64,000 nt of DNA from a virus (lineage: Duplodnaviria; Caudoviricetes), in the IMG/VR virus record IMGVR_UViG_3300044825_002173, positions 1,134 to 65,133 of that record. One strand, written 5' to 3'. The position numbers and the translations under genes are program-made. The notes under the pieces were generated by a model. It was not told the DNA's origin. It saw nothing but the letters and a program-made list of their open reading frames with translations, and made no database searches. This document shows positions 3,040 through 48,084 of this stretch, piece by piece; position 1 is the stretch's first letter; each line of letters starts with the position of its first letter.

Positions 3040-4947
3040 TTAGATTTCTTTCACGAGAAGATGACGAGTTGAAACTTCTTCATCAACAAGTTCACCATTT
3101 AATTCATAAGAAGAAGAAAGTGATTGCAAATTAACTCCTCTTTGAGCAGCAATTTTTTGTGCTTGAGATAACTTTTGTTGAGCAGTATCAACATTTTTTC
3201 TTGCAGTTAAAACCTGACTAATTTGACTTGTGTTTTTTTGTTGAGATGATTTAGGTTCCTGTGTTTTTGGCTGAATAAGTTGTGCTGCCACTGATTGTTC
3301 TTCAATCTTTTCAATCATTTTAGAAAGAAGTGATTCTCTAATTGCTTCCTCTTTAGTTTGAACTTTTTTAGGAAGTCCTTCATGAGATGTCTTAGCAAAA
3401 TCACGAATTTTCTTTTCACTCATTGAATCAACAATGTTAAGAACTTCAGCACTTACTTCAGATCTTGGAGTTTCTCCTCTCTTTACAGAAAGAGCAAGTC
3501 CAAAAATCCTTTGCTGTTGCTTACTTTCTGATTTTTCAGAAAGTTGCAACTCCTCTTTTGTTAAACTTTTTAACAATTCATTTGCTTTTTTACGTTTTTC
3601 TGCTCTTTCTTTTTTCGCCTTTTCTTTTGCATCAATTTGTGCTTTTACATCCTCAACCGATGGACCACCTTTTCTTCTACGAGCACGACGTGGGTTTTTA
3701 GGTCCATCAGTTTTTATTGTCGTAGTTTTTACTTTTGGATTTGCTTTTGGTTTTGGTTTTGGTTTTTCTGGTGCAGATTTACCGACTCTAGGATTTTCTG
3801 ATGTTCCTTCAGATGATTTTGGTTTTTTAGGAGTTACATCTTTTACAGAGACTTTTTTAACTTCCGATTTAGATGGTTTTGGAGATCCTGCAACTTCAAT
3901 TTTTTTACCAGCACCAATTCCTCTGCGAAGACTTGGTGCTCTCGTTCCTGTCTTAGAATGAACTTCACTTGGTTTTTCTGGATTTTCTGGTTTTTCAACT
4001 TTCGTTTTCTTACCAAGTACTTTTTGAAGACCACGCTTTAATTTAGATGCAATTCTAGATAATAATCCAGGTTTTGATACAGAAGTAGAAGAACTATCAG
4101 ATACTTGAGATTGAGATTTTTCAGATTTGCCATGTCTACCTCTTTGGTATCCACTCGATACTTCTCTACGTAGTGCTTTTGCTCCTCTTACGGCAACTCC
4201 AGCAGCATATCCAGCACTTTTAGCAAGTGCTTTTCCCACTTTTTTAATAGCAGACTTAACTTTTTTAAGTCTGTCTTCTTTAATGGTAGTATCAGTATCT
4301 ACAGATTCACTTATGATTTGAGATGATACCTCCAGAGATTCTAAAAGAATATCTTGAATTTCTAATACATCATAACCTTCTTCAAGGCACTCTAAAAATA
4401 CTTCTTCTACGACTTGTTCGATCAAATTGTCGCTGAGAAAAAATATTTCAGATTCTGAAAGATGATCAAGAACTCCTTCAAAATCTTCTATTTCAGAAAA
4501 TTCTAAAAGAGTTCCTCCAAGATTTTCAATAGACTCTCTCATTCCATCACCAAGATCAATAGATGGATTGATGGTAATTTTATTTTCTACTTTCTTTTCA
4601 ACAACTTTTTCTGATTTTTCAATCTTATCAATTACTTCATATAAATCATTTCTCCAATTTGAGAAACCTTCCTTGATTTTTTTCTTTTTCTTAAACTTAC
4701 CAGAAACTTCTCCTGGTTCATATCCAATACCATCATCATCATCATCAAACCACTTCTTAATTTCTTTCGCTTCTTTTACCTTTTTTCTCTTAAACTTACC
4801 AGAAACTTCTCCTGGTTCATATCCAATACCATCATCATCATTATCCCACCAACGTTTTACTTTTGGTTTTTTTGCTTCATCAAGTTGTTGCCCAATAACT
4901 TGATTGAAATAAAGGTCAGTAATATCGTTTACAATATTATTATCCAT
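3040..4947 (-). CDS. modular late protein: duplicated DxDxDG peptide, acidic helical module, long basic region, DUF3008-like module
   Basis: 635-aa ORF; the segment SKQQQRIFGLALSVKRGE...MSEKKIRDFAKTSHEGLPKKV resembles DUF3008. Confidence 0.75.
   Translation of the reverse strand: MDNNIVNDITDLYFNQVIGQQLDEAKKPKVKRWWDNDDDGIGYEPGEVSGKFKRKKVKEAKEIKKWFDDDDDGIGYEPGEVSGKFKKKKKIKEGFSNWRNDLYEVIDKIEKSEKVVEKKVENKITINPSIDLGDGMRESIENLGGTLLEFSEIEDFEGVLDHLSESEIFFLSDNLIEQVVEEVFLECLEEGYDVLEIQDILLESLEVSSQIISESVDTDTTIKEDRLKKVKSAIKKVGKALAKSAGYAAGVAVRGAKALRREVSSGYQRGRHGKSEKSQSQVSDSSSTSVSKPGLLSRIASKLKRGLQKVLGKKTKVEKPENPEKPSEVHSKTGTRAPSLRRGIGAGKKIEVAGSPKPSKSEVKKVSVKDVTPKKPKSSEGTSENPRVGKSAPEKPKPKPKANPKVKTTTIKTDGPKNPRRARRRKGGPSVEDVKAQIDAKEKAKKERAEKRKKANELLKSLTKEELQLSEKSESKQQQRIFGLALSVKRGETPRSEVSAEVLNIVDSMSEKKIRDFAKTSHEGLPKKVQTKEEAIRESLLSKMIEKIEEQSVAAQLIQPKTQEPKSSQQKNTSQISQVLTARKNVDTAQQKLSQAQKIAAQRGVNLQSLSSSYELNGELVDEEVSTRHLLVKEI
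4689..4841. repeat. perfect 54-bp direct repeat, period 99 bp
   Basis: 4689-4742 is identical to 4788-4841; encodes DDDGIGYEPGEVSGKFK twice. Confidence 0.95.
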
Positions 4948-6238
4948 TAGAATAAATGCTTTCTTTTATTTTTCTATACTTATTTATGAAATTGACTCCA
5001 TATGCCTTTCCACCATACTGAAGATTTTCTTTTCCTGTTTCAATTGCTCCAGGAGTCTTACTTGCATAATGCTTAAATGCACCTAAAGTTCCTACAAGTG
5101 TATTTGGATGAGTTTTATCTCTCATTGGACTATCCATTTTAACTTCAGTATATTCTGTTAAATCTTTAATCCAAGACTTAAACATATATCCTTCTTCAGT
5201 TACACAGATTAGATGATTGGTTCCTCTACGCATTACTTCACCAATCAATCCAGTATTTAAATTTTGTATTTTATCTCCGATCTTAAAAATTTTACCAGTT
5301 ACATAATTTTCACGAAGATTTTTCATATCATATTTTGGAGCAATCTCCCAAAGATTATAACTTTCTTTTTGGACTTTTGTTTTCTTAATTTTCATTCCTT
5401 GACGAACTTGATCAAACAATGCTTGAGTTTCAGCATCATCTAATGTTTTTGGTGTTCCTCTTCTAAAAGTTGCAAAGTCATTATCCATTACTGCTTTTCT
5501 CATTTTAGATGCAGACATTCCCATCACACCTTCCGCATCAGCATCTCTAACTCCAGCAGAAATTACACGAATTAAATCAAAGTTGTAAAGATCTCCATTA
5601 TACTTTTGAGCAAGATTTTCAAATTCTGACTGACGATCAGATCCACATACAATATTTACATTTGCATATCCTTCCTCTGCGGCAGTCACTAATACATTGA
5701 ATATTGTTTTCATATCAGGATCATCAATAATATTGTCCTCGTATTGAGGAAACATTTTTCTCATATAATGAATTTTAACTTCAGGACTCAAAGGATTTTT
5801 TTTCGGATCTTGAGTTCTAGAAGGATATATTTTTAAGTCTCCACCAACTGATACTTTTTTTGCCATGTTAAAAGTCTTATCATGCCCAATTGTCGGTGGA
5901 TTAAATCTACCAAATACAATAGTGAGAGTACCACCTTCTTCCGGAACTTCTTCTTCTGGTGCTGGTGCTTGAATTCTTTGAGAAGCAGGTACTTGCGCTT
6001 TTGTTGATTGTGGTTGTGAGGTTACAGGTGCTTGTACTCCTTTTGCTTGTGCTGATGGTTCTTTAGATGCTTGTCTGCCATCAAGAAATACCAACTTTCC
6101 ACCCTCAGTTTTTGCGACCATTTTACCGGAGCGATTCAACCATCCACCATGACCATCACCAGTTAATCCTAGTTTTTTGGCCTGTAAGGATGCTTGAGAT
6201 TCTCTTGCTTCGGATAAAAATCGTAAAAAATTTTTCAT
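4940..6238 (-). CDS. cyanophage-type cytidyltransferase (HxGH nucleotidyltransferase superfamily) with N- and C-terminal extensions
   Basis: FGRFNPPTIGH, CGSDR and SASKMR motifs. Confidence 0.88.
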   Translation of the reverse strand: MKNFLRFLSEARESQASLQAKKLGLTGDGHGGWLNRSGKMVAKTEGGKLVFLDGRQASKEPSAQAKGVQAPVTSQPQSTKAQVPASQRIQAPAPEEEVPEEGGTLTIVFGRFNPPTIGHDKTFNMAKKVSVGGDLKIYPSRTQDPKKNPLSPEVKIHYMRKMFPQYEDNIIDDPDMKTIFNVLVTAAEEGYANVNIVCGSDRQSEFENLAQKYNGDLYNFDLIRVISAGVRDADAEGVMGMSASKMRKAVMDNDFATFRRGTPKTLDDAETQALFDQVRQGMKIKKTKVQKESYNLWEIAPKYDMKNLRENYVTGKIFKIGDKIQNLNTGLIGEVMRRGTNHLICVTEEGYMFKSWIKDLTEYTEVKMDSPMRDKTHPNTLVGTLGAFKHYASKTPGAIETGKENLQYGGKAYGVNFINKYRKIKESIYSNG

Positions 6239-6429: not shown

Positions 6430-7587
6430 TCAACCACGAGAAGAATCAAGAATGTTATTTCTCCAATCTTCACTCATGTTAACCATGATTGCTTCTGCAG
6501 ACTCAACACTATCAGCATATCCTTCATCAAGAAGATGCTCAAGAACCACATCATAAAGATCAAGAGTTTCAACTTCTTCAATTAAATATGACTCTACTAA
6601 ATTAGAGGTTTGATCATCACACAAATTCTCAATTAGGTCGTATGCTTCATAAACATTGTTCACATATCCATCATTAATCAGGTCTTGAACTAAGATATCT
6701 AGAAGTTCAAAACTCTCTGAAGCAGTAAGTCTTGCTTCTCTTTTTTGTGCTTGTATTCTGGATTTTTTGGTTTTAAAAGTACCAGCAGGTTGTCCTTGTT
6801 GAACCGTTTCGGATGGACCAGATCCAGAAGCTGCTGAAGCAAGTTTAGCAGCTGCTGCTTTTCTTCTATCTACGGAAACTGTCTTAGTTTTTGCTGCAGG
6901 AAGTGCCGGTCTCTCTTTTCCAGGTTGTCCAATTCTTGGATTTGCTGAGGTTCCAACTGGAGATGCTTTAAATTCACTAGTATCTCTTCCTCTAGAAGCA
7001 GCTGCTTGGCGTCTAGCAGCTCTTCTCATTTCTCTACCAGTTGTTCTTGCTTTTGCTTCTCTTGCAGATTGTCCACTGAACTCTTTCTTAGCAGCAGAAG
7101 CACCTGCTTTAACTGCACTGCCAACTCTCTTAACTAGACCAACGATTTTTTCTTTAGCAGACTTAAGTTTACCACCAACTTTTGCAGCACCACCTGCTGC
7201 AGCAGAAACTGCTCCAGCACCTAGTGTCTTTGCTCTTTCTCCTGCTCTTTTTGCAGCACCCTTAATTCTTTCCATTCTTGCTGTTCTTCTTTCAGAAGCT
7301 TCAGCAGATCTCTTTGATTTAGTGGTTGATTTATTATATGCTTTTGCTTCTTTAGAACCTGCAGGAGCATATGGATTCATTTCTAAAATGAGTCCTTCAA
7401 AAACTTGAACACATTCAGAAAGTTCTACACCTTCAGAAAGAATTTCTTCCATTACTTGATCAAGTTCATTGTCACTTAAATCATCAATAAAAGAAAGATC
7501 TTCTTCGATAGAAATATCATCACGAAGTTCTTCATCATAAACAGCAACATATGCTTCACACAAACCTCTAATCTGTTTTGAGTCCAT
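6430..7587 (-). CDS. late hypothetical protein: acidic ends with LLDEGYA module, Ala/Lys/Arg-rich core
   Basis: 385-aa ORF; TATAAATA at 7615-7622; paralogous modules in 25162..26232. Confidence 0.8.
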   Translation of the reverse strand: MDSKQIRGLCEAYVAVYDEELRDDISIEEDLSFIDDLSDNELDQVMEEILSEGVELSECVQVFEGLILEMNPYAPAGSKEAKAYNKSTTKSKRSAEASERRTARMERIKGAAKRAGERAKTLGAGAVSAAAGGAAKVGGKLKSAKEKIVGLVKRVGSAVKAGASAAKKEFSGQSAREAKARTTGREMRRAARRQAAASRGRDTSEFKASPVGTSANPRIGQPGKERPALPAAKTKTVSVDRRKAAAAKLASAASGSGPSETVQQGQPAGTFKTKKSRIQAQKREARLTASESFELLDILVQDLINDGYVNNVYEAYDLIENLCDDQTSNLVESYLIEEVETLDLYDVVLEHLLDEGYADSVESAEAIMVNMSEDWRNNILDSSRG

Positions 7588-7630: not shown

Positions 7631-8044
7631 CTATCCACCTCTTCCTTTTGTGCCATAAGTTCTTCCAGATCTTGCAATATTTGTTCCTCTTCCTCCAGCA
7701 GTTCCTTTCTTAGCATATCTGTGCTGAGTAATTACATCCGGTTCCGCAGGAAGATCTGTTCTTTGAACATTGCTGGTTGTTCCAACTCTACTTGCAACAT
7801 CTTTTGGTTTTGATGCATAACCACCAACATATGAATTTGGTTTCGTCTGTGGTTTTGGTTTATCGCTAGTAGCAGCTCCTATTTTTGCCTGAGTTCCTGC
7901 TTGAAGTTCGCCCGCCTGAACATTTAATTTCTTAAATGTTTCCATATCGCCTTTTTGCATTGCTTGTCTTGCCTTTGCTCTTAATGCTGCAATTTGAGAA
8001 GAAACGTTTTCTGCTTCAGCAATAAACTCCGAAAAAGTTTTCAT
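7631..8044 (-). CDS. putative internal head protein
   Basis: Likely start ATG at 8044: MKTFSEFIAE resembles the T4 IPII/IPIII capsid-targeting sequence; basic body. Confidence 0.75.
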   Translation of the reverse strand: MKTFSEFIAEAENVSSQIAALRAKARQAMQKGDMETFKKLNVQAGELQAGTQAKIGAATSDKPKPQTKPNSYVGGYASKPKDVASRVGTTSNVQRTDLPAEPDVITQHRYAKKGTAGGRGTNIARSGRTYGTKGRGG

Positions 8045-16291: not shown

Positions 16292-16474
16292 TTAGTCGCC
16301 ATTCCCACCACCATCACCAGCACCAGATCCAGGATTAATTGGAACTGCTCTACCAGCACCAACATTTGTGATTATAGATTTACCTCTTTTATTGGTACGA
16401 TAAACTTTATGTGGTTTTGCTGCTGGATACGAAATTGTTTTTATTTCGTTAAAAAATTGGCGGAAAGATTTCAT
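16292..16474 (-). CDS. small putative internal head protein
   Basis: MKSFRQFFNE N-terminus (capsid-targeting-like), basic middle, Gly-rich tail. Confidence 0.6.
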   Translation of the reverse strand: MKSFRQFFNEIKTISYPAAKPHKVYRTNKRGKSIITNVGAGRAVPINPGSGAGDGGGNGD

Positions 16475-25161: not shown

Positions 25162-26232
25162 TTACATTCCATACTTTTCAAAATCAGCTCGCGCATCTGC
25201 AGCTGCTTGCTTATGTTGATTTTGCCTATATTCTCCGGATTTCGATCTATTTTTTCTCGCCTGAGAAGTTGAATATTTTCTTTCAATAGGAGTATCTAAT
25301 TTATCTGCCACAATTCTAAGGACATCTCCACGATCACCGCCAAGTCTTTTTGCTTGTCTTTCTATTTTTCCTCGATTCATTCTTTTAAATCCTTCGTCTA
25401 AAACTTCCCCACACCACTCTTCACTCATATTCATAAGAATTACTTCAGCACCTTCAACAGTTTCGGCATATCCTTCATCAAGAAGATGTGAAAGGATGTA
25501 GTCATATTCCTCTTTACTGAGAGCACGTCTTCTAGCAGTAGATGCTCCAAGAGTGCGCCCAAGAGCACCTCCAGCGGCAGTAAGAACTTGAGTGTGACGT
25601 TTAACACCTTTATGAGTAGCAACTCTTGCTTGCCTTGCCAGTCTAGAATCACTTGCTGTATTTAAAGCATCAATTCCAGTTTTAACTGCTTTACCTACAG
25701 TTTGAGCGGTTTTTTTAGTCAATTCAATATCCTGCTTGGCTTTCTTAACAGCACCGCCAAGAGCAGCTCCAAGTCTTCCAGCAATTCCCATTCTAGTTTG
25801 AGTTGGAGTTGAGGAAGATGCTGGTTGTTTTGCTTGTGCGGATGCAACAGCACCTTCTCTTTTCTTAATTACACCAGAAACTCCACCAGAAATACCACCT
25901 CTTACGGTTCCACCATATTTTTTAATAGCTGCTTTTGTGGTGCTTTGCGGTCTGCTTCCCTTAGGTCCAACTAAAATTTTATTTTTCTTATCTGCCATTT
26001 TTTGGAGGCGAGTTTGAGATGCCTCTTCCAAATAAGACTCCTCTACAATTTCATCAACCCAATCAACAAACTCATCTTCACCAAGTTCTTCAATTAGAAT
26101 ATCAATTCCATACTCATTCAGACCCATCTCATAGAAATACTCAGTAGCAATTTCAACCTCTTCACTAATATACTGAGGTTGATAAACAGAAATATATGCT
26201 TCTGAAAGATTGCGAATGTCTTTTGCGTCCAT
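25162..26232 (-). CDS. late hypothetical protein with LLDEGYA module and basic core
   Basis: TATAAATA at 26253-26260; shares motifs with 6430..7587. Confidence 0.8.
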   Translation of the reverse strand: MDAKDIRNLSEAYISVYQPQYISEEVEIATEYFYEMGLNEYGIDILIEELGEDEFVDWVDEIVEESYLEEASQTRLQKMADKKNKILVGPKGSRPQSTTKAAIKKYGGTVRGGISGGVSGVIKKREGAVASAQAKQPASSSTPTQTRMGIAGRLGAALGGAVKKAKQDIELTKKTAQTVGKAVKTGIDALNTASDSRLARQARVATHKGVKRHTQVLTAAGGALGRTLGASTARRRALSKEEYDYILSHLLDEGYAETVEGAEVILMNMSEEWCGEVLDEGFKRMNRGKIERQAKRLGGDRGDVLRIVADKLDTPIERKYSTSQARKNRSKSGEYRQNQHKQAAADARADFEKYGM

Positions 26233-35667: not shown

Positions 35668-36318
35668 TTACAATGAGTTTAAAAACTCATTAAAAAGTGA
35701 TAATTTATATTCCTCAAGAATTCTTTGATCAACTAAGTTATTTATTTTAATTTTTGTATTCTCTGCTACTCTTTCTTTTAGAATTCCACCATCCCAACAC
35801 CACTCTTTACCTTCCATAATTCCTTGAACAAAAGCATCAGGTGCTGAGGGGTCTGCAACAATGTCAGCAGCAGTTGCAAGCATAAAATCTTCGCCAACTT
35901 CTTTATATCCTTTATTATTTTCTCTTAGTGAACCAATACCACGAGAAGAAACGCCAAGACAAACACCTTCTTTAAGAAGTGATTCTGCAATCTTACCCAT
36001 TGGAGTGGAAAGAATCTGTGCCTTACCAATAAAATTGTTTCCTTCTTGTGTAAGAGAAACAATCTTATGTGATACTCTGTCAAGATTTACAGTAGGGCCA
36101 TCAGGATGTCCTAGTTCTCCAAGAGCACGACCCTTATCTACATACTGCTCAGTATATCTTTTTACTTCACGCTCCATAATGGACATAGGATACATACGTC
36201 CATTACGATTGACGCATTCTGCCTGTAAAAAAGGACCCTGAATGTAGAGTTTTTGGTTAGTACCTTTTCCTTCAGTAATAACTTCTACCTTTTCGATTTC
36301 TTCTGTGATGAGTTTCAT
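35668..36318 (-). CDS. gp21: prohead protease
   Basis: NRNGRMY, ALGELGHP, GVSSRGIGS, DIVADPSAPDA. Confidence 0.96.
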   Translation of the reverse strand: MKLITEEIEKVEVITEGKGTNQKLYIQGPFLQAECVNRNGRMYPMSIMEREVKRYTEQYVDKGRALGELGHPDGPTVNLDRVSHKIVSLTQEGNNFIGKAQILSTPMGKIAESLLKEGVCLGVSSRGIGSLRENNKGYKEVGEDFMLATAADIVADPSAPDAFVQGIMEGKEWCWDGGILKERVAENTKIKINNLVDQRILEEYKLSLFNEFLNSL

Positions 36319-36908: not shown

Positions 36909-38339
36909 TTAATAAATCTCTCTCCACTGAAGAGCAGCAGCAACGTTAGCAGTAGCATTACCTGTAGTAGTAATGGTTCTTACAGCAAGCACATAAATTT
37001 CAGAGTTTGATGAATCAATATTTTGAACAATGATATTTTTCTTTGCAGCACTTAATGCTCCAGAAGCAACTGGTGAAAGTGAGTTTTGTGATGCGCCAGA
37101 AGGAACATAGCCCGATGCAAATTCATCACCATCACTATAAGTTGTAGCATCCACACAATATTCAACTCCACTATTGGCAGAGGCAGAAGTCCAAGTTAAA
37201 GTTCCAGCATTGCTCAAATAAGCAGAACTTGGAAGTTTCACGACCCTATAAATGATACTATTTGTTTCACAATGTATTGAAAGGTTATTTAACCTTACTG
37301 ATATTCTATTTGGATATCCTTGGAACGTATTTTTGAGACGAATTGCGATCAATGGAAGTTCAGTTCCTGCTGGTGTTGGAGTTGTTCTTGATGTGGTCAT
37401 TGTAACAGCAAAGTCAATACCACTTTCTACATATCCACCTTCCGACATTACAGAAGAACAGATTTGATCAAAAGATGCTCCAATACCAACACCAGTGTTT
37501 CTAATTTCACAACGAACTGGTAAATTTGGATTGGCAATATAAACAGTTGCTAGATTGTTAGAGTGGTAAAATTCGTGTGCTGTGATAAGTTGTCCATTAT
37601 GAGCAAAACCACAACGAACTCTACCAACACCTAACCACTGGAAATCTATAAACGCAAGTTGAGTTTTTGTGACATCTAAATCAAATCCAGATGTTCCTGT
37701 ACCATCACACTTGTCTCTGTTCCATTGTGATTGTGGAATTCTGGTTTCTGTTGCAATTCCACTTGTAAAAGATCTAATTACCCAGTTGAGAGTTCCAATA
37801 TCAGGGTTTACCCCATCTGAGGTATTAATTCCAACTTGCTCAAGATAGATTCCATCTCTATCATCAAAATATCCCGTTCTTTTCGTTGCGTTTTGTTGAG
37901 GGGCATAAAAGTTAAAAGAACTAAAAATTAATTGCCCTTTTCCTGGTTGATAATGATGATAAAATTTTGTTTGGTGAATACAAGACGCTGTAGATCCAAT
38001 CCCAGTTTGTAATCTTGCTGCTGCCTGGTTTTGGAAGAACGTTACCGTTGAACCTGCCCCAGAAACACTATCTAAAAAGTTTGGGTCAATAGCATAAACG
38101 TGCTTATAGTCACCAAGAGTAAATAATTCAGAAACTCTTGCTCTACCAAATGCATCAACAGCATTTGTATCTGGATTGATAGTTATAAGAGTTTCAGAAG
38201 AAATTCCAACCGTTCCCGTAACTGGAAATGGATTTTGTGGACTAATTATTCGACCATCGCTTGATGCAACACCTACAACTTCAAATAGAGATCTTTCCTG
38301 ATTAAGATAATCTTGAGTTGTTATATTCCACTGAGCCAT
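36909..38339 (-). CDS. hypothetical (probable virion) protein
   Basis: 476-aa beta-rich ORF in the head gene cluster (DAFGRARVS, YQPGK, IDFQWLGVGRVRCGF). Confidence 0.75.
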   Translation of the reverse strand: MAQWNITTQDYLNQERSLFEVVGVASSDGRIISPQNPFPVTGTVGISSETLITINPDTNAVDAFGRARVSELFTLGDYKHVYAIDPNFLDSVSGAGSTVTFFQNQAAARLQTGIGSTASCIHQTKFYHHYQPGKGQLIFSSFNFYAPQQNATKRTGYFDDRDGIYLEQVGINTSDGVNPDIGTLNWVIRSFTSGIATETRIPQSQWNRDKCDGTGTSGFDLDVTKTQLAFIDFQWLGVGRVRCGFAHNGQLITAHEFYHSNNLATVYIANPNLPVRCEIRNTGVGIGASFDQICSSVMSEGGYVESGIDFAVTMTTSRTTPTPAGTELPLIAIRLKNTFQGYPNRISVRLNNLSIHCETNSIIYRVVKLPSSAYLSNAGTLTWTSASANSGVEYCVDATTYSDGDEFASGYVPSGASQNSLSPVASGALSAAKKNIIVQNIDSSNSEIYVLAVRTITTTGNATANVAAALQWREIY

Positions 38340-38342
38340 TTA

Positions 38343-38663
38343 TCAATCAATCCATTCTAATTTTGATGGGTGGTATCTTTGTGCGTTTTTGATGTTTAAA
38401 TTTTTTTCCATTACAGGATAAATTTGATGAACAACTGCTCCTGGATAGTCTAGTTGTAATTGCTCACCAAGTTCTCTAGTAGAAGGAATGCCAGTTTTAG
38501 TGACTAACTCCAAACGATATAAACTACCTTGCCACATTACATCGGCAACATATTCTTCACCAACTTGCTGTGGTTGTTCTGGTTCTGAGTTGATATAAAG
38601 ATTTCCTGTGAAATCGCCAGCAATATTAACTGATTCTGAGATAAATTGCTTGAAGGATTTCAT
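38343..38663 (-). CDS. putative internal head protein
   Basis: MKSFKQFISE capsid-targeting-like N-terminus; domain similar to a module of 45718..47625. Confidence 0.75.
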   Translation of the reverse strand: MKSFKQFISESVNIAGDFTGNLYINSEPEQPQQVGEEYVADVMWQGSLYRLELVTKTGIPSTRELGEQLQLDYPGAVVHQIYPVMEKNLNIKNAQRYHPSKLEWID

Positions 38664-38852: not shown

Positions 38853-40538
38853 TTATATCTCACCACCCTTGGGCATTTCTGCTACTTTTGCATTAACTTG
38901 AGTTTCTTTTCCTTGAGATTCTAAATCTGGTTCCATTACTGGTTGTCCCAAATCCATTTGAGAAGTTTGATCTAAAGGCATACCAGTCATAGGATCAACA
39001 GGTGCATTTGGATCCGGAATAATACCATCTGCAATTTCTTTTTTCATAATTTTGTCTTGTTCAATAATTTCCTCATCAGTTTGACGAAGAATCTTTCTCC
39101 TAAGATAATCTTGTGAAAAATATTTTCCAACATAAGGTTCTGCAATTTGAACCATATTTAATCTCTCATTTAATAGTTCAGAATCTTTTAATTCTGCAAA
39201 ATGGTTATCATATAAGAAATTATATTGAATATGCTCTTCCATCATATTCCAGTCTTCTGGAGTAATGATATTTTTAAGAATTAATTGTGTCTTGAGCATA
39301 TCATGGAACATATAAGAGAATCTTTTCCTCAATCGAGCAACAAATTTGCTAAATTTGACTTCATCACGAAGAATTTCTGATGATCTTCCAAGATTAAATC
39401 CACCATCTCCACCAATTCTTGTTGTAGGAACATTTAAAGATCTATAAAGTTTTTCTTGAAAATAATTAATATCTGTAATTTCGCCAAGATTCTGTCCACC
39501 AGGAAGTGTAGAAATTTCTGTTCCTCTTCCACCTTCTCTTCTTGGAAGCCAAAAATCTTCAAGCATCGCCATAAATTTCTTATCATCACGAATTTCTCCA
39601 GTGCTTGCGTCATAAACCATTTTATTTCTATAACGCATCATTACATCACGAAGATATTGTTCCGCTTTTACTTTAGGAAGATTTCCAACATCGATATAAA
39701 AAATTCTTCTTTCGGGAGCTCTTGATAATCTGTAAATAACAAGAGAATCTTCAATCATACGAAGTTGATTGAGAGATTTAATTGCTTTGTGGAGATATGA
39801 TAGAGTCGATCCTTTATTACGATCTACAAGTCCAGAAGTACAATAGGTTATTGAATCTCTAGTAAATTTAATTCCACCAGTTCCACCCAAAGAAGCTGGA
39901 TTACTGGTTGGATAAGTCATTTTTGGATTATAAATGAAATATTCCTCAATTTGAGGAAATTCAAAATTCATAGGGTCATCTGAATTGACACCAGCCATCC
40001 TATAAGTTCTTTTATCTTTTTCAGATTTTTTTTGTTGACGCACATATCGCATCTTCATTGCGTCAATATATCTTAATTCTTGAATTCCCAAGTGAGGGTT
40101 CTTCAAATCAATTACTTTATGATAATAAAGTCTTCCATCAACATACCAGTTTCTATAAATTTCATGAGATTTTTTGTCAAAATCCAAAAGTGAAAGAATA
40201 TATTTAAATTCTTGCCTAATTTTATTTTTGATACCATCACTTGCATTCAGATTAGATAATTCAATTTCAATTGGAGTATCATTCGTATCACTAACAATAG
40301 CTTCGTTTACAATATCTTCAATGGCACTATCACATTCTGGGTGAAGTGCCATTTCACGATATCTTTTGATAAGATCAAATTCTGTTCTATAAACACCCTC
40401 AATATCTACATATGAACCAAAAAAACCACTGCTCAAGTAATAATCTGATTCGTCCTCTCTATTATCAGGAACAGGAGAAGCAATACTCGGAGACAGTGGT
40501 TCTGTATCTTCAATAGAAAATCCAAATAATTTTGCCAT
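38853..40538 (-). CDS. gp20: portal vertex protein
   Basis: YRLSRAPERRIFYIDVGNLPK, EDFWLPRREGGRGTEISTLPGG. Confidence 0.97.
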   Translation of the reverse strand: MAKLFGFSIEDTEPLSPSIASPVPDNREDESDYYLSSGFFGSYVDIEGVYRTEFDLIKRYREMALHPECDSAIEDIVNEAIVSDTNDTPIEIELSNLNASDGIKNKIRQEFKYILSLLDFDKKSHEIYRNWYVDGRLYYHKVIDLKNPHLGIQELRYIDAMKMRYVRQQKKSEKDKRTYRMAGVNSDDPMNFEFPQIEEYFIYNPKMTYPTSNPASLGGTGGIKFTRDSITYCTSGLVDRNKGSTLSYLHKAIKSLNQLRMIEDSLVIYRLSRAPERRIFYIDVGNLPKVKAEQYLRDVMMRYRNKMVYDASTGEIRDDKKFMAMLEDFWLPRREGGRGTEISTLPGGQNLGEITDINYFQEKLYRSLNVPTTRIGGDGGFNLGRSSEILRDEVKFSKFVARLRKRFSYMFHDMLKTQLILKNIITPEDWNMMEEHIQYNFLYDNHFAELKDSELLNERLNMVQIAEPYVGKYFSQDYLRRKILRQTDEEIIEQDKIMKKEIADGIIPDPNAPVDPMTGMPLDQTSQMDLGQPVMEPDLESQGKETQVNAKVAEMPKGGEI

Positions 40539-43817: not shown

Positions 43818-44066
43818 TCACCAATCAGGATATTGCCATTGCAAAGTAGTTGATATATTTCTTTTCTTTGACTCAATAACTCTCTTTACCGTACATTCTT
43901 TACACTCATATGAAAAGGATGATGCAACAGGACCTCTATCTTTACGAGTTCTATAAAAACCATCAATTAAATTTTTGTCTTCACCACAAGTCCTGCATTT
44001 TCTATCTGTGAGTAGTAAATGCCCCAATTTGATTTGCTTATCCAAATCCATTATTGATATTCCCAC
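43818..44066 (-). CDS. small zinc-ribbon hypothetical protein
   Basis: CRTC...FY...CKEC. Confidence 0.7.
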   Translation of the reverse strand: MGISIMDLDKQIKLGHLLLTDRKCRTCGEDKNLIDGFYRTRKDRGPVASSFSYECKECTVKRVIESKKRNISTTLQWQYPDW

Positions 44067-45700
44067 ATATATGCCATATCACCATATTCATCAACAAACC
44101 ATCTATCACCATTTACATCAACAAAACTACTATCGTTTAATCCATCGGTTATAAAACCAAATGGTGCCATATCTTGTTCTATTTGATTTTTTTGTTCTTC
44201 ATATAATCTTTTTCTAACATCTTGGTCAGTAAGTTCTTTGAAATAATCTTGTGCGACTAACCAAGCATAAATTACCAAACACATTGCCAAGTCATCATTA
44301 CAACCTTCTTCTGCTTCAAATGAATTATGCTTTTGTATAAAAGTTGTAAGTTCACTCATAATATCGTAATCTTTAAAGAGAAGTTTATTCTCCTCAATCA
44401 TAGTTTTTAGGTTAAGACATCCAACTTTTTTTACGGTTTTGGACATCTTTACTCCAAGTTGAGTTTTCTTTCCTGAAAAACCTTGTCCAACAATTTGACC
44501 TGCTCTTCCTCTCATAGAGCACATCAAAAGATTAGTATATTCCAAATCATAATGTATAATTGATGCTACTTGATCTCCAACATCATTAACTTCACATAAA
44601 ATATATGCATTATTATAATTTTTTGCTACATCTACGATAATGCTTGGAAATAACATTGGTTTAATTTCATTATTTCTATATTTTGCAACTACCTGATGTG
44701 GAAATGTAGTAATATCGACTACAATAAATGCTGAATAATCATTACCAACTCCTCTAGCAACGTCCACTGAAATTAAATAATCATGGTTTTCCATAGAATC
44801 TTCATAAACATCCAACCCACCACTACTTGTTTTTGGATGATCATATACAAGTGCTCTAAGTTTTGATGGTGCTATTAAAGTATCTACTGACCCTAAAAAC
44901 TCACATTCAAACTCAACTTTGAATTGATTTTCTGAAGTGTTTGCAATAGTCTGCTTCTTCCATTCTTCGTCTCTACCGGGAACTTCACTCCAATGAACGT
45001 CAGTATAAACATACTCATTTTTGCCTTTTTCTGCATCATGCCACATACGGTAGAAATGATTCATACCGTGCGGAGTTGAAACTATAATAACTTTAGTTTG
45101 TTTACCTGAAGTAATGGTAGGATATACTGATGCAAAGAACGAATCTGCAATATGATTTGGGACGAAAGCAAATTCGTCCAAGAATAAAATGTTAAATGAC
45201 ATTCCTCGGACAGCAGATGCAGATGTTGAAGCTGCAAGAATCTTAGAACCATTTTCAAGTTCAAGAGAACCTTTGTTCCAAGAAATAATACCTTGCTGCA
45301 TCCACTTTGGAAGGTTTTCATAAGCAGTCTGTAACCTATCCAGAAGTTCTCTGGCTGTCGCTGCTTTATTTGCCAAGATACCAATATTTACGTTGTCATT
45401 AAAAACAGCATAATGCAAGAGAAAGGATACCACAGTCGTTGACTTACCAGTCTGTCTTGGCATCTTACAGATATTAAATCTGTGCTTATGAAAATTATTA
45501 ATTAATTTCTCTTGAAAATGATATGGTTGAAATGGTTGTAATCCATGATCAAGAGTAACAATTTTTACATAATTTTTGGAAAAATAAACCGGATCATTCT
45601 GGCATTTGACAAACTCAAGAATTTGTTCTTGAGTAAATTCGTGAGTAGTATTTGCCTTTTTTAAAAGTGGATTACCAAGATATACATCATTATTTGCCAT
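44051..45700 (-). CDS. gp17: terminase large subunit
   Basis: PRQTGKST, LDEFAF, STPHGMNHFY, VDVARG, DDLAMCL; uninterrupted. Confidence 0.97.
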   Translation of the reverse strand: MANNDVYLGNPLLKKANTTHEFTQEQILEFVKCQNDPVYFSKNYVKIVTLDHGLQPFQPYHFQEKLINNFHKHRFNICKMPRQTGKSTTVVSFLLHYAVFNDNVNIGILANKAATARELLDRLQTAYENLPKWMQQGIISWNKGSLELENGSKILAASTSASAVRGMSFNILFLDEFAFVPNHIADSFFASVYPTITSGKQTKVIIVSTPHGMNHFYRMWHDAEKGKNEYVYTDVHWSEVPGRDEEWKKQTIANTSENQFKVEFECEFLGSVDTLIAPSKLRALVYDHPKTSSGGLDVYEDSMENHDYLISVDVARGVGNDYSAFIVVDITTFPHQVVAKYRNNEIKPMLFPSIIVDVAKNYNNAYILCEVNDVGDQVASIIHYDLEYTNLLMCSMRGRAGQIVGQGFSGKKTQLGVKMSKTVKKVGCLNLKTMIEENKLLFKDYDIMSELTTFIQKHNSFEAEEGCNDDLAMCLVIYAWLVAQDYFKELTDQDVRKRLYEEQKNQIEQDMAPFGFITDGLNDSSFVDVNGDRWFVDEYGDMAYMWEYQ

Positions 45701-45717: not shown

Positions 45718-47625
45718 TTAATTACAATTCCAGCGTTTGCGTGCTGCCTTACCTCTTTCTCCAGTCCAACTTCTAGAACGACTACAGAAATTTCTTCTCC
45801 TTTTCCAGTCTGCCGAACCTGGTTTTAATTCTGAAGGAGGTGTGGTAACAGCAGTTTTAAGTTTTGAACCTTTATTTTCTCTTCGATATGCCTTTACTGC
45901 AGCACGACTCAAACCATCAGTTCTGTCTTGACGATTAATCCTTTGCCAGTCTTCATCAACCTCAACTTCTTCTCCCATTGGTTTTACATAATTTCTACTA
46001 GGACCAGGTTTTGCTGCACTTCCACCTTGAGGTCCAAATGCCTGGATTAAAGGTTGTCCTGGTTGAATTTCAGAGACGGAATGATAAACAACTATTGATC
46101 CTGGATAAACTTTTTGAAGTTCATCATTGATTTCTTTACGTGTTGGAAGTTTGACTTGAGGAAAAAACATTTTAAGAGAATAATATTTTCCTCTCCAATT
46201 TAAAGTTACTCCAATTACATTGCCAGTTTGTGCCTGAAGTCTTGTCGCTTCATCTACTTGAGATTTAAATCCTTTAATTGGTTCAGGTTTAATAATATCA
46301 ACAACTTCTGCAAATGTATTTCCATTTGCATCCTCAATAGTAACATTTTCCGATTTTACGCAAGAACCTTTTTCAAATTTAGTAGTTCCTTTTTTTCTTT
46401 TATAACCTTTCCAACATGGACCACTTTCTCCTAGTTCTGATAAAATTTTATCTACTATGGATGGTTCGTATTCGGCATTTATGTTTCTAATATTAGTATC
46501 TCCAGGTCTCACCAAAGGCATTCTAGGTTCTTTTCTTTTTGATTGTGCCGCCTCTCTTTCTCCTTCAGTTGCACCTTGCTGAGAAAGATTTCTAATACTT
46601 GTAGAACGTTTAGATTTTCTAATATCTTTAGGATTTACTTCAAAACTTATTCCCTCTTCCATCTCTCCACTCGCAACATAGTCTGCAGCAGTATCAATAT
46701 AATCTGCAGCCTTAGTAATTTTTGATTGAACCCATGCCTCAAGATCACCTTCGCCTTTACCAACTTTTGCTTTAAGTCTTTTTACTGCGTCCTCAATGGT
46801 CTTGAGTTCTGATCTTGCCATCGAATATTCTTCATCTTTCACAGATACTTTATCCCATGCTTTCTCTCCATAAGAACACTCAGATCTTGTTTCTCTTTTA
46901 TCACATAAAGGACAGTATCTTTCTTCTTCGTGCATGGTTTCCTCCGATTTAGTTCCCCAGTTTGCAGCACCAACTTTACGGCATTTTACAAGTGCTCCAG
47001 ATGCATATGCACTTGGCCATACATCATATTTAGACTTTACTTTATGATAGCAAGCATCTTTTTTACCGCTACCTTTACCTGGTTTATCTTTCACTTCTAG
47101 CAAATCCATTTCTTCTTTCCTTGTTTTTCTATCTGTTCTTACCATAGTTGGTTTAGCAGCACCAGATTTTTGTGGTTGATTTGGATCTTCTCTTCTCTTC
47201 GCTGCTCGTGCAGCAAGTCTTTCTGCTCTAGTCATCGAAGCACGCTTTTCGGATGATACGCATTTAGGAGTGGCAGTTTCTCCTTCTTCTCTAGCACAAG
47301 CATCTCCATCTACAACATCAACCCAACCTTTTTCGCCTTTTTTTGATTTGGACTTACCAAACCAATCACGAAGACCTTCTTCAGTTACATCTTTAAACTT
47401 TTTATGATGTTTTTTAGCGTCTGCTTCCATTTTTTTGAGACGAGTATAATAATCTGGAATTTCATCTAGATGCTGAAGAGCAATATCCATCGCTAACTCA
47501 TGATCTTTTGTGTGTTCATGTTCAATAGGTTCGCCCATATCAAGTTGCTTTTGTATAAAAGAAACATCAAGACGATGCTTCTTTGCAATTTGCTCAACTG
47601 TTTTATGAGATTTGAGTTTATTCAT
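45718..47625 (-). CDS. multi-module late protein (string of small domains)
   Basis: 635 aa with about 7 distinct modules, each preceded by an xxE junction; late promoter-like AATAAATA upstream. Confidence 0.8.
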   Translation of the reverse strand: MNKLKSHKTVEQIAKKHRLDVSFIQKQLDMGEPIEHEHTKDHELAMDIALQHLDEIPDYYTRLKKMEADAKKHHKKFKDVTEEGLRDWFGKSKSKKGEKGWVDVVDGDACAREEGETATPKCVSSEKRASMTRAERLAARAAKRREDPNQPQKSGAAKPTMVRTDRKTRKEEMDLLEVKDKPGKGSGKKDACYHKVKSKYDVWPSAYASGALVKCRKVGAANWGTKSEETMHEEERYCPLCDKRETRSECSYGEKAWDKVSVKDEEYSMARSELKTIEDAVKRLKAKVGKGEGDLEAWVQSKITKAADYIDTAADYVASGEMEEGISFEVNPKDIRKSKRSTSIRNLSQQGATEGEREAAQSKRKEPRMPLVRPGDTNIRNINAEYEPSIVDKILSELGESGPCWKGYKRKKGTTKFEKGSCVKSENVTIEDANGNTFAEVVDIIKPEPIKGFKSQVDEATRLQAQTGNVIGVTLNWRGKYYSLKMFFPQVKLPTRKEINDELQKVYPGSIVVYHSVSEIQPGQPLIQAFGPQGGSAAKPGPSRNYVKPMGEEVEVDEDWQRINRQDRTDGLSRAAVKAYRRENKGSKLKTAVTTPPSELKPGSADWKRRRNFCSRSRSWTGERGKAARKRWNCN

Positions 47626-47652: not shown

Positions 47653-48084
47653 TTATTCCTGTTCTCCTTGCGATTGTTGCTTAAGAAGTTTTGCTAATTC
47701 TGCAGTTGATCCAACAAAAAGTGCATTGTTTACTGTTGTAGGTCCTTTTGTCGTCTCTTCTTCAACATCTTTTTTAATTTTATGTAGTGCCATAAGTTTT
47801 TCGGCAATTTCACTTGTGTTTTTGATTAACTGTCCAGCAACTTCATATGCTCTTGGCATCTCACTTTCTTGCGCTAATTCAAGAATACCATTAATTGCCT
47901 CTTGACCTTTTTCGACTAGAGAATATAAATTTCCTCTTGCATATTCATAATCTTTCTTGATATCATCAGCAGTTGATGCTAATTTTTCTATTTTTTCATC
48001 AACGGTTTGCTTTTCTATGGAAACTACTTCTCCATCTACATTAAAAGCATCATTTAATCCATCAAATTTTTTAGTCATTTTCAT
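47653..48084 (-). CDS. gp16: terminase small subunit
   Basis: DYEYARGNL, PRAYEVAGQL, NALFVGSTAEL. Confidence 0.93.
   Translation of the reverse strand: MKMTKKFDGLNDAFNVDGEVVSIEKQTVDEKIEKLASTADDIKKDYEYARGNLYSLVEKGQEAINGILELAQESEMPRAYEVAGQLIKNTSEIAEKLMALHKIKKDVEEETTKGPTTVNNALFVGSTAELAKLLKQQSQGEQE

Follow-up and report, generated by a model that had tools for sequence, protein, structure and literature searches.

In phage T4 the internal head proteins IPI, IPII, IPIII and Alt are small, mostly basic cargo carrying a 10-residue capsid targeting sequence that ends in hydrophobic-x-Glu and is removed by the prohead protease gp21, which cuts after L/I-X-E; positions 4 and 7 of this leader act in targeting, positions 8 and 10 in processing, with Asp at position 10 preventing processing and sparing targeting, the internal protein gene content varies between related phages, and IPI blocks a restriction system of the host (PMC9026906). 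The same source describes gp22, gp67 and gp68 of the core as single polypeptides cut by gp21 at several L/I-X-E sites inside the prohead and mostly expelled (PMC9026906). In the giant phages phiKZ, 201phi2-1 and SPN3US the prohead protease likewise cuts inner-head and ejection proteins after Glu, some of them at multiple sites, but the motif is A/S-X-E, the propeptides, thought to target these proteins to the prohead, exceed 100 residues, and no shuffling of small modules is reported (PMC5694885). Here we analyse an open reading frame (ORF) of 635 amino acids (aa) at 45718..47625 (-) in a stretch of 64,000 nucleotides (positions 1,134 to 65,133 of IMG/VR record IMGVR_UViG_3300044825_002173, hereafter the window), which belongs to a 65-kb contig from a T4-like cyanomyovirus with Synechococcus and Prochlorococcus myoviruses as its top matches at both the DNA and the protein level. 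We are highly confident that the family of this ORF, T4-GC119, is at least virion-associated and modular, and we incline to the view that the ORF encodes a head-cargo precursor that would be packaged and cut by gp21 into several small proteins. Such an architecture would be a variant on the T4 internal-protein system, with many cargo modules in one ORF, internal sites and no N-terminal leader, whereas its relatives and a paralogue of one module carry leaders nearly identical to those of T4. Picornavirus P1 and retroviral Gag also yield several mature proteins from one precursor, by their own viral protease and inside the assembling particle; these viruses and proteases are unrelated, and the products here would be accessory cargo, not capsid.

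By its matches the ORF belongs to the cyanomyovirus family T4-GC119 / phrog_727 (E 1.2e-72 to phrog_727), and tblastn matches labelled T4-GC 119 come from S-SM2 (SSM2_109), S-SM1 (SSM1_115), Syn19 (Syn19_101) and P-SSM4 (PSSM4_160). Relatives at E <= 0.001 number at least 7971 among 8000 scored candidates of similar length and at least 6470 among 8000 scored shorter ones, and in isolate genomes the products are labelled T4-GC 119, 'hypothetical protein', 'structural protein' or 'virion protein'. The earlier note, made from the sequence alone, had placed the ORF between gp16 and gp17, and indeed it lies between the genes for the small terminase (47653..48084, phrog_445) and the large terminase (44051..45700, by annotation in matching phage records), with a translation identical to the one quoted there. 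The same interval houses the homologue in S-SRM01, S-SM2, S-SM1, Syn19 and S-P4, and the P-SSM4 homologue sits elsewhere. In the accessible part of Sullivan et al. 2010, T4-GC119 appears under no other name than hypothetical protein, with no architecture, leader or processing described, and the gp16-gp17 interval is a known accessory-gene hot-spot (PMC3037559). Our literature search found no account of T4-GC119 module architecture or of a targeting leader in cyanophages, although other papers or supplements may hold one. The suggestion that a polyprotein strategy of this kind is rarely described for phages stands within the literature searched, in which no shuffled cargo chain appeared. Multi-site cutting of head proteins by prohead proteases is known from the T4 core and from phiKZ-like phages.

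The protein is rich in lysine and glutamate (Lys 79, Glu 61) and has 11 cysteines in five groups (110, 122; 192, 215; 238, 241, 250; 404, 422; 614, 634). Its N-terminal region matches DUF5661 (residues 11-67, Pfam E 3.7e-13, 50.1 bits against a cutoff of 27, i.e., above the gathering threshold), and 11 PHROGs families match separate stretches of it. A Pfam search of the 635-aa protein gave no DUF6321 match at E <= 1, so that the membership threshold is not reached; however, all four homologues scanned match DUF6321 in the aligned C-terminal region, two of them above the 28.5-bit cutoff (53.0 and 53.8) and two just under it (27.6 and 28.3), and the C-terminal module is therefore a diverged DUF6321. 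The PDB sequence search returned nothing for the 635-aa protein and only noise for P0121, the free-standing relative of one of its modules described below; the ESM Atlas search returned its own family alone, and the BFVD search relatives alone (S-SCSM1 virion protein and DUF6321 proteins). With Pfam, PDB sequence and fold searches no similarity of the modules to the T4 internal proteins was detected. DUF5661 also occurs in the Vibrio phage vB_VpaM_VPs20, which is unrelated to T4, within a DUF2213 protein with a coiled-coil C-terminus (4392..5660 of record L008) that is encoded between the upstream terminase gene and the tail genes, immediately before a DUF2184 gene; we take DUF2213 proteins to act in head maturation and DUF2184 to be a capsid protein.

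The modular character of the protein is seen most clearly in how its homologues are put together. Among 383 matching phage records only two, which come from S-SRM01, cover at least 80% of the query, and the remaining phage records share subsets of it, e.g., residues 80-173, 85-233, 191-233, 229-262, 450-527 or 571-634. When the ends of blastp matches from 239 homologues were clustered blind to any motif, ten breakpoint clusters emerged (~82, 174, 232, 263, 325, 386, 401, 426, 457 and 557), with which all seven junctions named in the earlier note coincide, so that its image of beads on a string, carried by homologues in other numbers and orders, is borne out. Among 22 shorter relatives mapped, mostly from contigs >10 kb, P0147 is a clean deletion variant (1-82 / 233-335 / 456-634) and module order is changed in P0192, P0209 and P0242. 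Six isolate proteins compared in full (S-SM2, S-SCSM1, S-SM1, Syn19, P-SSM4 and S-P4) have differing orders and extra beads; SSM2_109 of S-SM2 (3704..5830 of record L002) contains a CxxGYYYC module and, between VKE and IEE, a complete DUF192 bead (E 3.6e-24), and therefore unrelated domains can enter the chain. Several of the modules are independently folding units that also exist alone, and together with the deletions and reorderings, the free-standing P0121 and a free-standing 94-aa DUF6321 protein, encoded in a cluster of head genes in phage DSL-LC04, show that modules are both shuffled and standalone in other phages, as the earlier note had asked of them. On one metagenomic contig of 250,788 bp the gene seems to be split into a 309-aa N-terminal protein (P0133) and a 230-aa C-terminal protein (P0218); P0133 has a non-homologous tail, and the split may derive from a frameshift or an insertion.

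From the N-terminus onwards, all (-), the chain begins with module 1 (residues 1-82, 47380..47625), consisting of DUF5661 and a helical tail, KKFKDVTE, that leads into junction J1 with a predicted cut after E82; breakpoints fall at 79-87 (blastp) and FKDV-x-E is conserved. Module 2 (83-177, 47095..47379) runs LRDWF...GW...C110...C122 into a basic tail that ends in LLE (J2, predicted cut after E177); phrog_12753 matches it at 85-171, and it is relocated or free-standing in P0233, P0242 and P0383. Module 3 (178-233, 46927..47094; VKDKPGKGSGKK-DACYHKVKS...C215, ending in MHE at J3) is the most widespread: queried as residues 170-235 it was found in 2936 representative proteins of 95-885 aa, two Roseobacter-phage records among its carriers, with the module at positions anywhere from residue 2 to ~660. 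What had been described as a single fourth module splits at the ~263 cluster into two separately moving parts, namely module 4a (234-262, 46840..46926), a three-Cys unit (RYCPLC...C250) that is alone or relocated in P0209, P0169 and P0198 with invariant cysteines, and the helical module 4b (263-324, 46654..46839; EYSMARSE...AWVQSKITKAADY, ending in GEMEE at J4), with breakpoints at 261-265 and 324-327 and an N-terminal boundary devoid of a protease-like motif. Residues 325-400 (46426..46653) comprise a variable insert (325-386) and a VDKIL helix ending in LSELGE (J5); the insert is poorly conserved, with an occupancy of ~0.5 in close homologues, 62 ends of high-scoring segment pairs at 324 and 51 starts at 387, and where it is missing the MEE of J4 directly adjoins the VDKI helix. 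Module 6 (401-459, 46249..46425) combines C404-W-x-G-Y...C422 with a linker containing IKGFKSQVDE (J6, predicted cut after E459). It is followed by module 7 (460-558, 45952..46248), a beta-beta-alpha-beta domain (~464-525) paralogous to P0121 with a disordered linker ending in EVDE (J7), and by module 8 (559-635, 45721..45951), which is helical, DUF6321-type and very basic (isoelectric point, pI, 11.5), with C614 and C634.

Structure prediction agrees with this picture. The AlphaFold model of the full-length protein (mean predicted local distance difference test, pLDDT, 45.8; predicted template-modelling score, pTM, 0.20) is too poor for domain boundaries, and although six of the seven junctions lie in segments with pLDDT <50, this says little because such segments cover 375 of the 635 residues. 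A model of residues 401-635 alone (AlphaFold 2, AF2; pTM 0.32) has two confident domains, 464-525 (pLDDT 82-90) and 560-635 (79-90), and two segments of pLDDT <50, 437-463 and 528-556, which both end at VDE motifs (J6 and J7), i.e., the separate domains and linkers anticipated in the earlier note. Foldseek found no match at E <= 0.001 for this model in the PDB, and its best-ranked entries, phi29 p6, YkzG, p56 and T7 Gp2, are noise (E 0.3-1.1).

All seven motifs quoted for the junctions are present (VTE80-82, LLE175-177, MHE231-233, MEE322-324, LGE398-400, VDE457-459 and VDE556-558), and a hydrophobic-x-Glu upstream of the modules recurs across the family. Alignments of 176-192 relatives show that at J2, J6 and J7 position P2 varies freely while P1 and P3 stay: at J2 P1 is Glu in 155 and P3 L/V/I/M in 158 of 180 sequences, at J6 P1 is Glu in 179 and P3 V/I/M/L in 176 of 192 (with D, E, S, N or T at P2), and at J7 P1 is Glu in 166 and P3 I/V/L/F in 160 of 176. 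When 11 module types were anchored by regular expressions in 327 sequences, [ILVMF]xE was found in 395 of 525 unique upstream contexts against 205 expected by shuffling the contexts, a set of mutually related sequences in which such counts overstate independent events. The motif precedes the CW module (module 6) in 119 of 126 contexts and module 3 in 133 of 137 instances (53 expected) drawn from 147 representatives at <=50% identity; in 119 of the latter it stands exactly 12 residues before DACY with unrelated sequence upstream, and its P3 is L in 57, I in 38, V in 28, F in 5 and M in 5. This pattern corresponds to the L/I-X-E preference of T4 gp21 (PMC9026906).

A second line of evidence comes from leaders of the T4 type (MKTYQEFIAE at the N-terminus of ipII and ipIII in the T4 record). 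Such a leader opens seven shorter family members (MKTFQEFILE, MKSFTAFILE, MKTFNQFVLE, MKTFSKFLVE, MKTFSQFLLE, MITFKQYLEE), in which it directly precedes a Cys module, DUF5661 or the CW module, and MKTFQEFILE equals the T4 leader at 8 of 10 positions. Scanning viral contigs with one leader-bearing relative gave 80 loci. Among the 45 with context examined gp16 is just upstream in 40 (the other five begin at the gene) and gp17 downstream in 33, and these loci are therefore positional orthologues; of the 75 related loci whose 5' end is complete, 38 start with the leader, a fraction inflated by the use of MKTFQEFI as a search pattern. Modules also occur as separate genes with their own leaders, i.e., P0121, P0179 and P0383.

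Of these, P0121 (106 aa, 38343..38663 (-)) is encoded in the window itself, beside the portal gene (38853..40538), with the leader MKSFKQFISE; P0121 and its 120 relatives have M-K-S-[FY]-x-Q-F-[ILV]-x-E in 121 of 121 cases. Local alignment by hhalign (probability 95%, E 3.4e-8) indicates that module 7 is a paralogue of this putative cargo protein, and in the global alignment the P0121 leader falls on residues 450-459, IKGFKSQVDE, at J6, which retain leader positions 2, 4, 5, 8 (as V) and 10. Residues 450-459 and 75-82 (KKFKDVTE, a weaker look-alike at the end of module 1) are degenerate internal leader copies. J6 keeps the processing positions and loses the position-7 aromatic, the pattern to be expected if a leader, once fused, were still processed but had become dispensable for targeting. 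A gene for a 476-aa 'virion structural protein' (phrog_1645, 36909..38339 (-)) and the P0121 gene adjoin the portal gene in the window; in four related loci (L026, L043, L044 and L045) a P0121-type gene directly follows the T4-GC119 gene, with phrog_1645 and P0121-type genes both lying between gp16 and gp17; the T4-GC119, P0121-type and phrog_1645 genes therefore travel together.

Besides P0121, three ORFs of the contig open with a T4-type leader, giving four in all: a 432-aa cytidylyltransferase-type ORF at 4940..6238 (-) (MKNFLRFLSE; phrog_395, E 3e-100), an ORF at 7631..8044 (-) (MKTFSEFIAE, 8 of 10 positions identical to T4) and an ORF at 16292..16474 (-) (MKSFRQFFNE). In S-SCSM1 the orthologue of the 4940..6238 ORF is the NMNAT, which starts with MKSFLQFLKE and is reported in the virion proteome (PMC9602691); in a cyanomyovirus the leader hence goes with a virion-associated enzyme, which suggests that packaged cyanomyovirus proteins are predictable from it. 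As for the T4-GC119 family, the S-SCSM1 homologue (SSCSM1_29), likewise leaderless, is annotated as virion protein and those of S-P4 and S-B43 as structural protein, a status that here means GenBank product names and published text; S-SCSM1 virions were analysed by shotgun mass spectrometry (PMC9602691). A remark in the phage records, 'similar to Synechococcus phage S-SM1 protein', may at most hint at orthologues of S-SM1 virion proteins; it stands on gp14, gp15, gp18 and T4-GC119, and not on gp16/gp17.

We propose that the product of the ORF is a late precursor of cargo for the head interior, of the T4-internal-protein kind, a chain of ~8-9 small, independently folding modules; from entry into the prohead onwards the course of events is what we infer. 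The precursor would be built into the prohead core, where gp21, once activated, would cut after the Glu of exposed hydrophobic-x-Glu linkers (E82, E177, E233, E324, E400, E459 and E558, or a subset of these). The proposed processing enzyme is encoded where the earlier note had it, at 35668..36318 (-) (Peptidase_S77, E 6.6e-38; phrog_207, E 3.7e-82), and shares 82 identical positions with T4 gp21 in a pairwise alignment. Cutting would release fragments of 6-11 kDa, most of which are basic, while five have Cys pairs or triplets that are conserved. They would remain associated with the DNA, pass into the host together with it and may act in DNA condensation or protection, anti-defence or host takeover. 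In order, the predicted fragments have 82, 95, 56, 91, 76, 59, 99 and 77 residues and pI values of 7.1, 9.4, 9.5, 4.8, 9.2, 8.6, 9.0 and 11.5, so that the small basic peptides foreseen in the earlier note hold for most of them, with one acidic (pI 4.8) and one neutral (pI 7.1) fragment departing from the description. The protein differs from T4 gp22, gp67 and gp68, acidic scaffolds most of whose fragments exit the head, in being a chain of conserved, folded mini-domains with a set that changes from phage to phage.

Several results weigh against this proposal. Its main weakness is the leaderless N-terminus: the 635-aa protein starts MNKLKSHKTVEQ, without the leader pattern M-K-x-aromatic-x-x-F-[IL]-x-E, which is likewise found in 0 of 119 near-length homologues, and its internal leader copies have no aromatic at position 7, the one linked to targeting in T4. 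The protein contains 12 [ILVM]xE motifs against 10.1 +/- 2.8 in 2000 shuffles (a fraction of 0.31 reach 12), a chance-level number, and the count alone is therefore meaningless. Eight of the 12 lie <=4 residues from a breakpoint cluster (binomial P 4.7e-5), a placement that is partly due to Glu being common in linkers; Glu is enriched at boundaries generally, and once this is controlled for, by comparing a hydrophobic P3 in 8 of 25 boundary Glu with 4 of 36 elsewhere (Fisher P 0.046), the signal within the protein is weak. Module boundaries in homologues, which the earlier note expected to coincide with such sites, do so at seven of the ten breakpoint clusters, and those at ~263, ~386 and ~426 have no motif. 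Upstream enrichment was not seen for the EYSM module (14 of 53, 13.3 expected) or for the AAWT form of module 8 (DUF6321; 3 of 7, 2.7 expected), and with the relatedness of the sequences, mentioned above, the counts are not independent events. In addition, P3 is V or M at five of the seven junctions, as opposed to the L/I consensus of T4, and P1' is acidic at J1, J3 and J7, whereas A or S comes after the T4 leaders. Conservation of L-x-E at the edge of a module could simply reflect the fold of that module, and the shotgun proteomics of S-SCSM1 is silent on fragment size.

Much of this would be accounted for by an uncut multi-domain virion protein, inside the head or at another place in the particle, in which the motifs are relics of gene fusion or module edges and at most an N-terminal leader is removed where there is one. 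To the chance-level count, the missing leader, the boundaries devoid of a motif and the fossil leader at J6 without its position-7 aromatic can be added that a low pTM is also typical of flexible multi-domain proteins. Relics would decay, yet P3 and P1 are kept with P2 free at J2, J6 and J7, the motif precedes nearly every instance of module 3 in distant proteins whatever the upstream sequence, and modules exist as leader-bearing separate genes; we consider an uncut protein a possibility to be taken seriously, albeit an improbable one. Cutting itself would also be expected of a prohead-core assembly factor in the manner of T4 gp22, gp67 and gp68, processed so that its pieces exit before DNA packaging and nothing is delivered to the host, and besides the behaviour of those T4 proteins the fusion of DUF5661 to a DUF2213 protein upstream of a DUF2184 gene in VPs20 speaks for such a role. 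However, the modules are conserved, Cys-stabilised, mostly basic domains and not acidic coiled coils like the gp22 of this contig, their content varies freely between phages, unlike that of an essential scaffold, and in S-SCSM1 a homologue carries the annotation of a virion protein of mature particles, all of which make a core factor unlikely. A product acting inside the cell and absent from the particle, e.g., a nucleic-acid-binding regulator of the hyperplastic gp16-gp17 region, would suit an interval that is an accessory-gene hot-spot (PMC3037559) and the weak resemblance of DUF5661 to the small helical IF2_N domain (E 0.13). We hold it to be very improbable, given the virion and structural annotations of the homologues in S-SCSM1, S-P4 and S-B43, the targeting leaders of the positional orthologues and the late structural genes that surround it on its strand.

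Should the head-cargo precursor be real, it would add a large, so far unannotated set of injected proteins to marine cyanomyoviruses, together with a simple genetic route to diversify that set. Of all phage proteins, those from inside the head enter a cell first, and T4-like cyanophages are among the most abundant marine viruses. Shuffling of modules between phages would be the pattern of arms-race cargo. As a more speculative step, which we put forward tentatively and would not be surprised to see fail, T4-like cyanophages may fill their heads with combinatorial mixtures of small, Cys-stabilised effectors, derived from one hypervariable, module-shuffled precursor that the prohead protease cuts at every junction. 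In that case the gene between gp16 and gp17 would serve as an evolvable 'cargo cassette', to which new anti-defence or takeover modules are added by in-frame insertion, each with its own leader and cut site. Use of the T4 capsid-targeting leader in cyanophages would in turn make packaged proteins predictable from sequence; this contig alone would encode four of them.

The 635-aa ORF sits amid late structural genes that all lie on one strand, and its neighbourhood also includes an endonuclease VII gene, the tail sheath gene, gp22 and gp23. Two further ORFs, at 6430..7587 (-) (385 aa) and 25162..26232 (-) (356 aa), have similar N-termini (MDSKQIRGLCEAYVAVY and MDAKDIRNLSEAYISVY) and are otherwise unannotated, the former having no Pfam match and a weak PHROGs match and the latter no PHROGs match; these N-termini might represent either a further common leader or a domain with paralogues. 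A second ORF of 635 aa, unrelated in sequence, lies at 3040..4947 (-) and has DUF3008 at residues 474-529.

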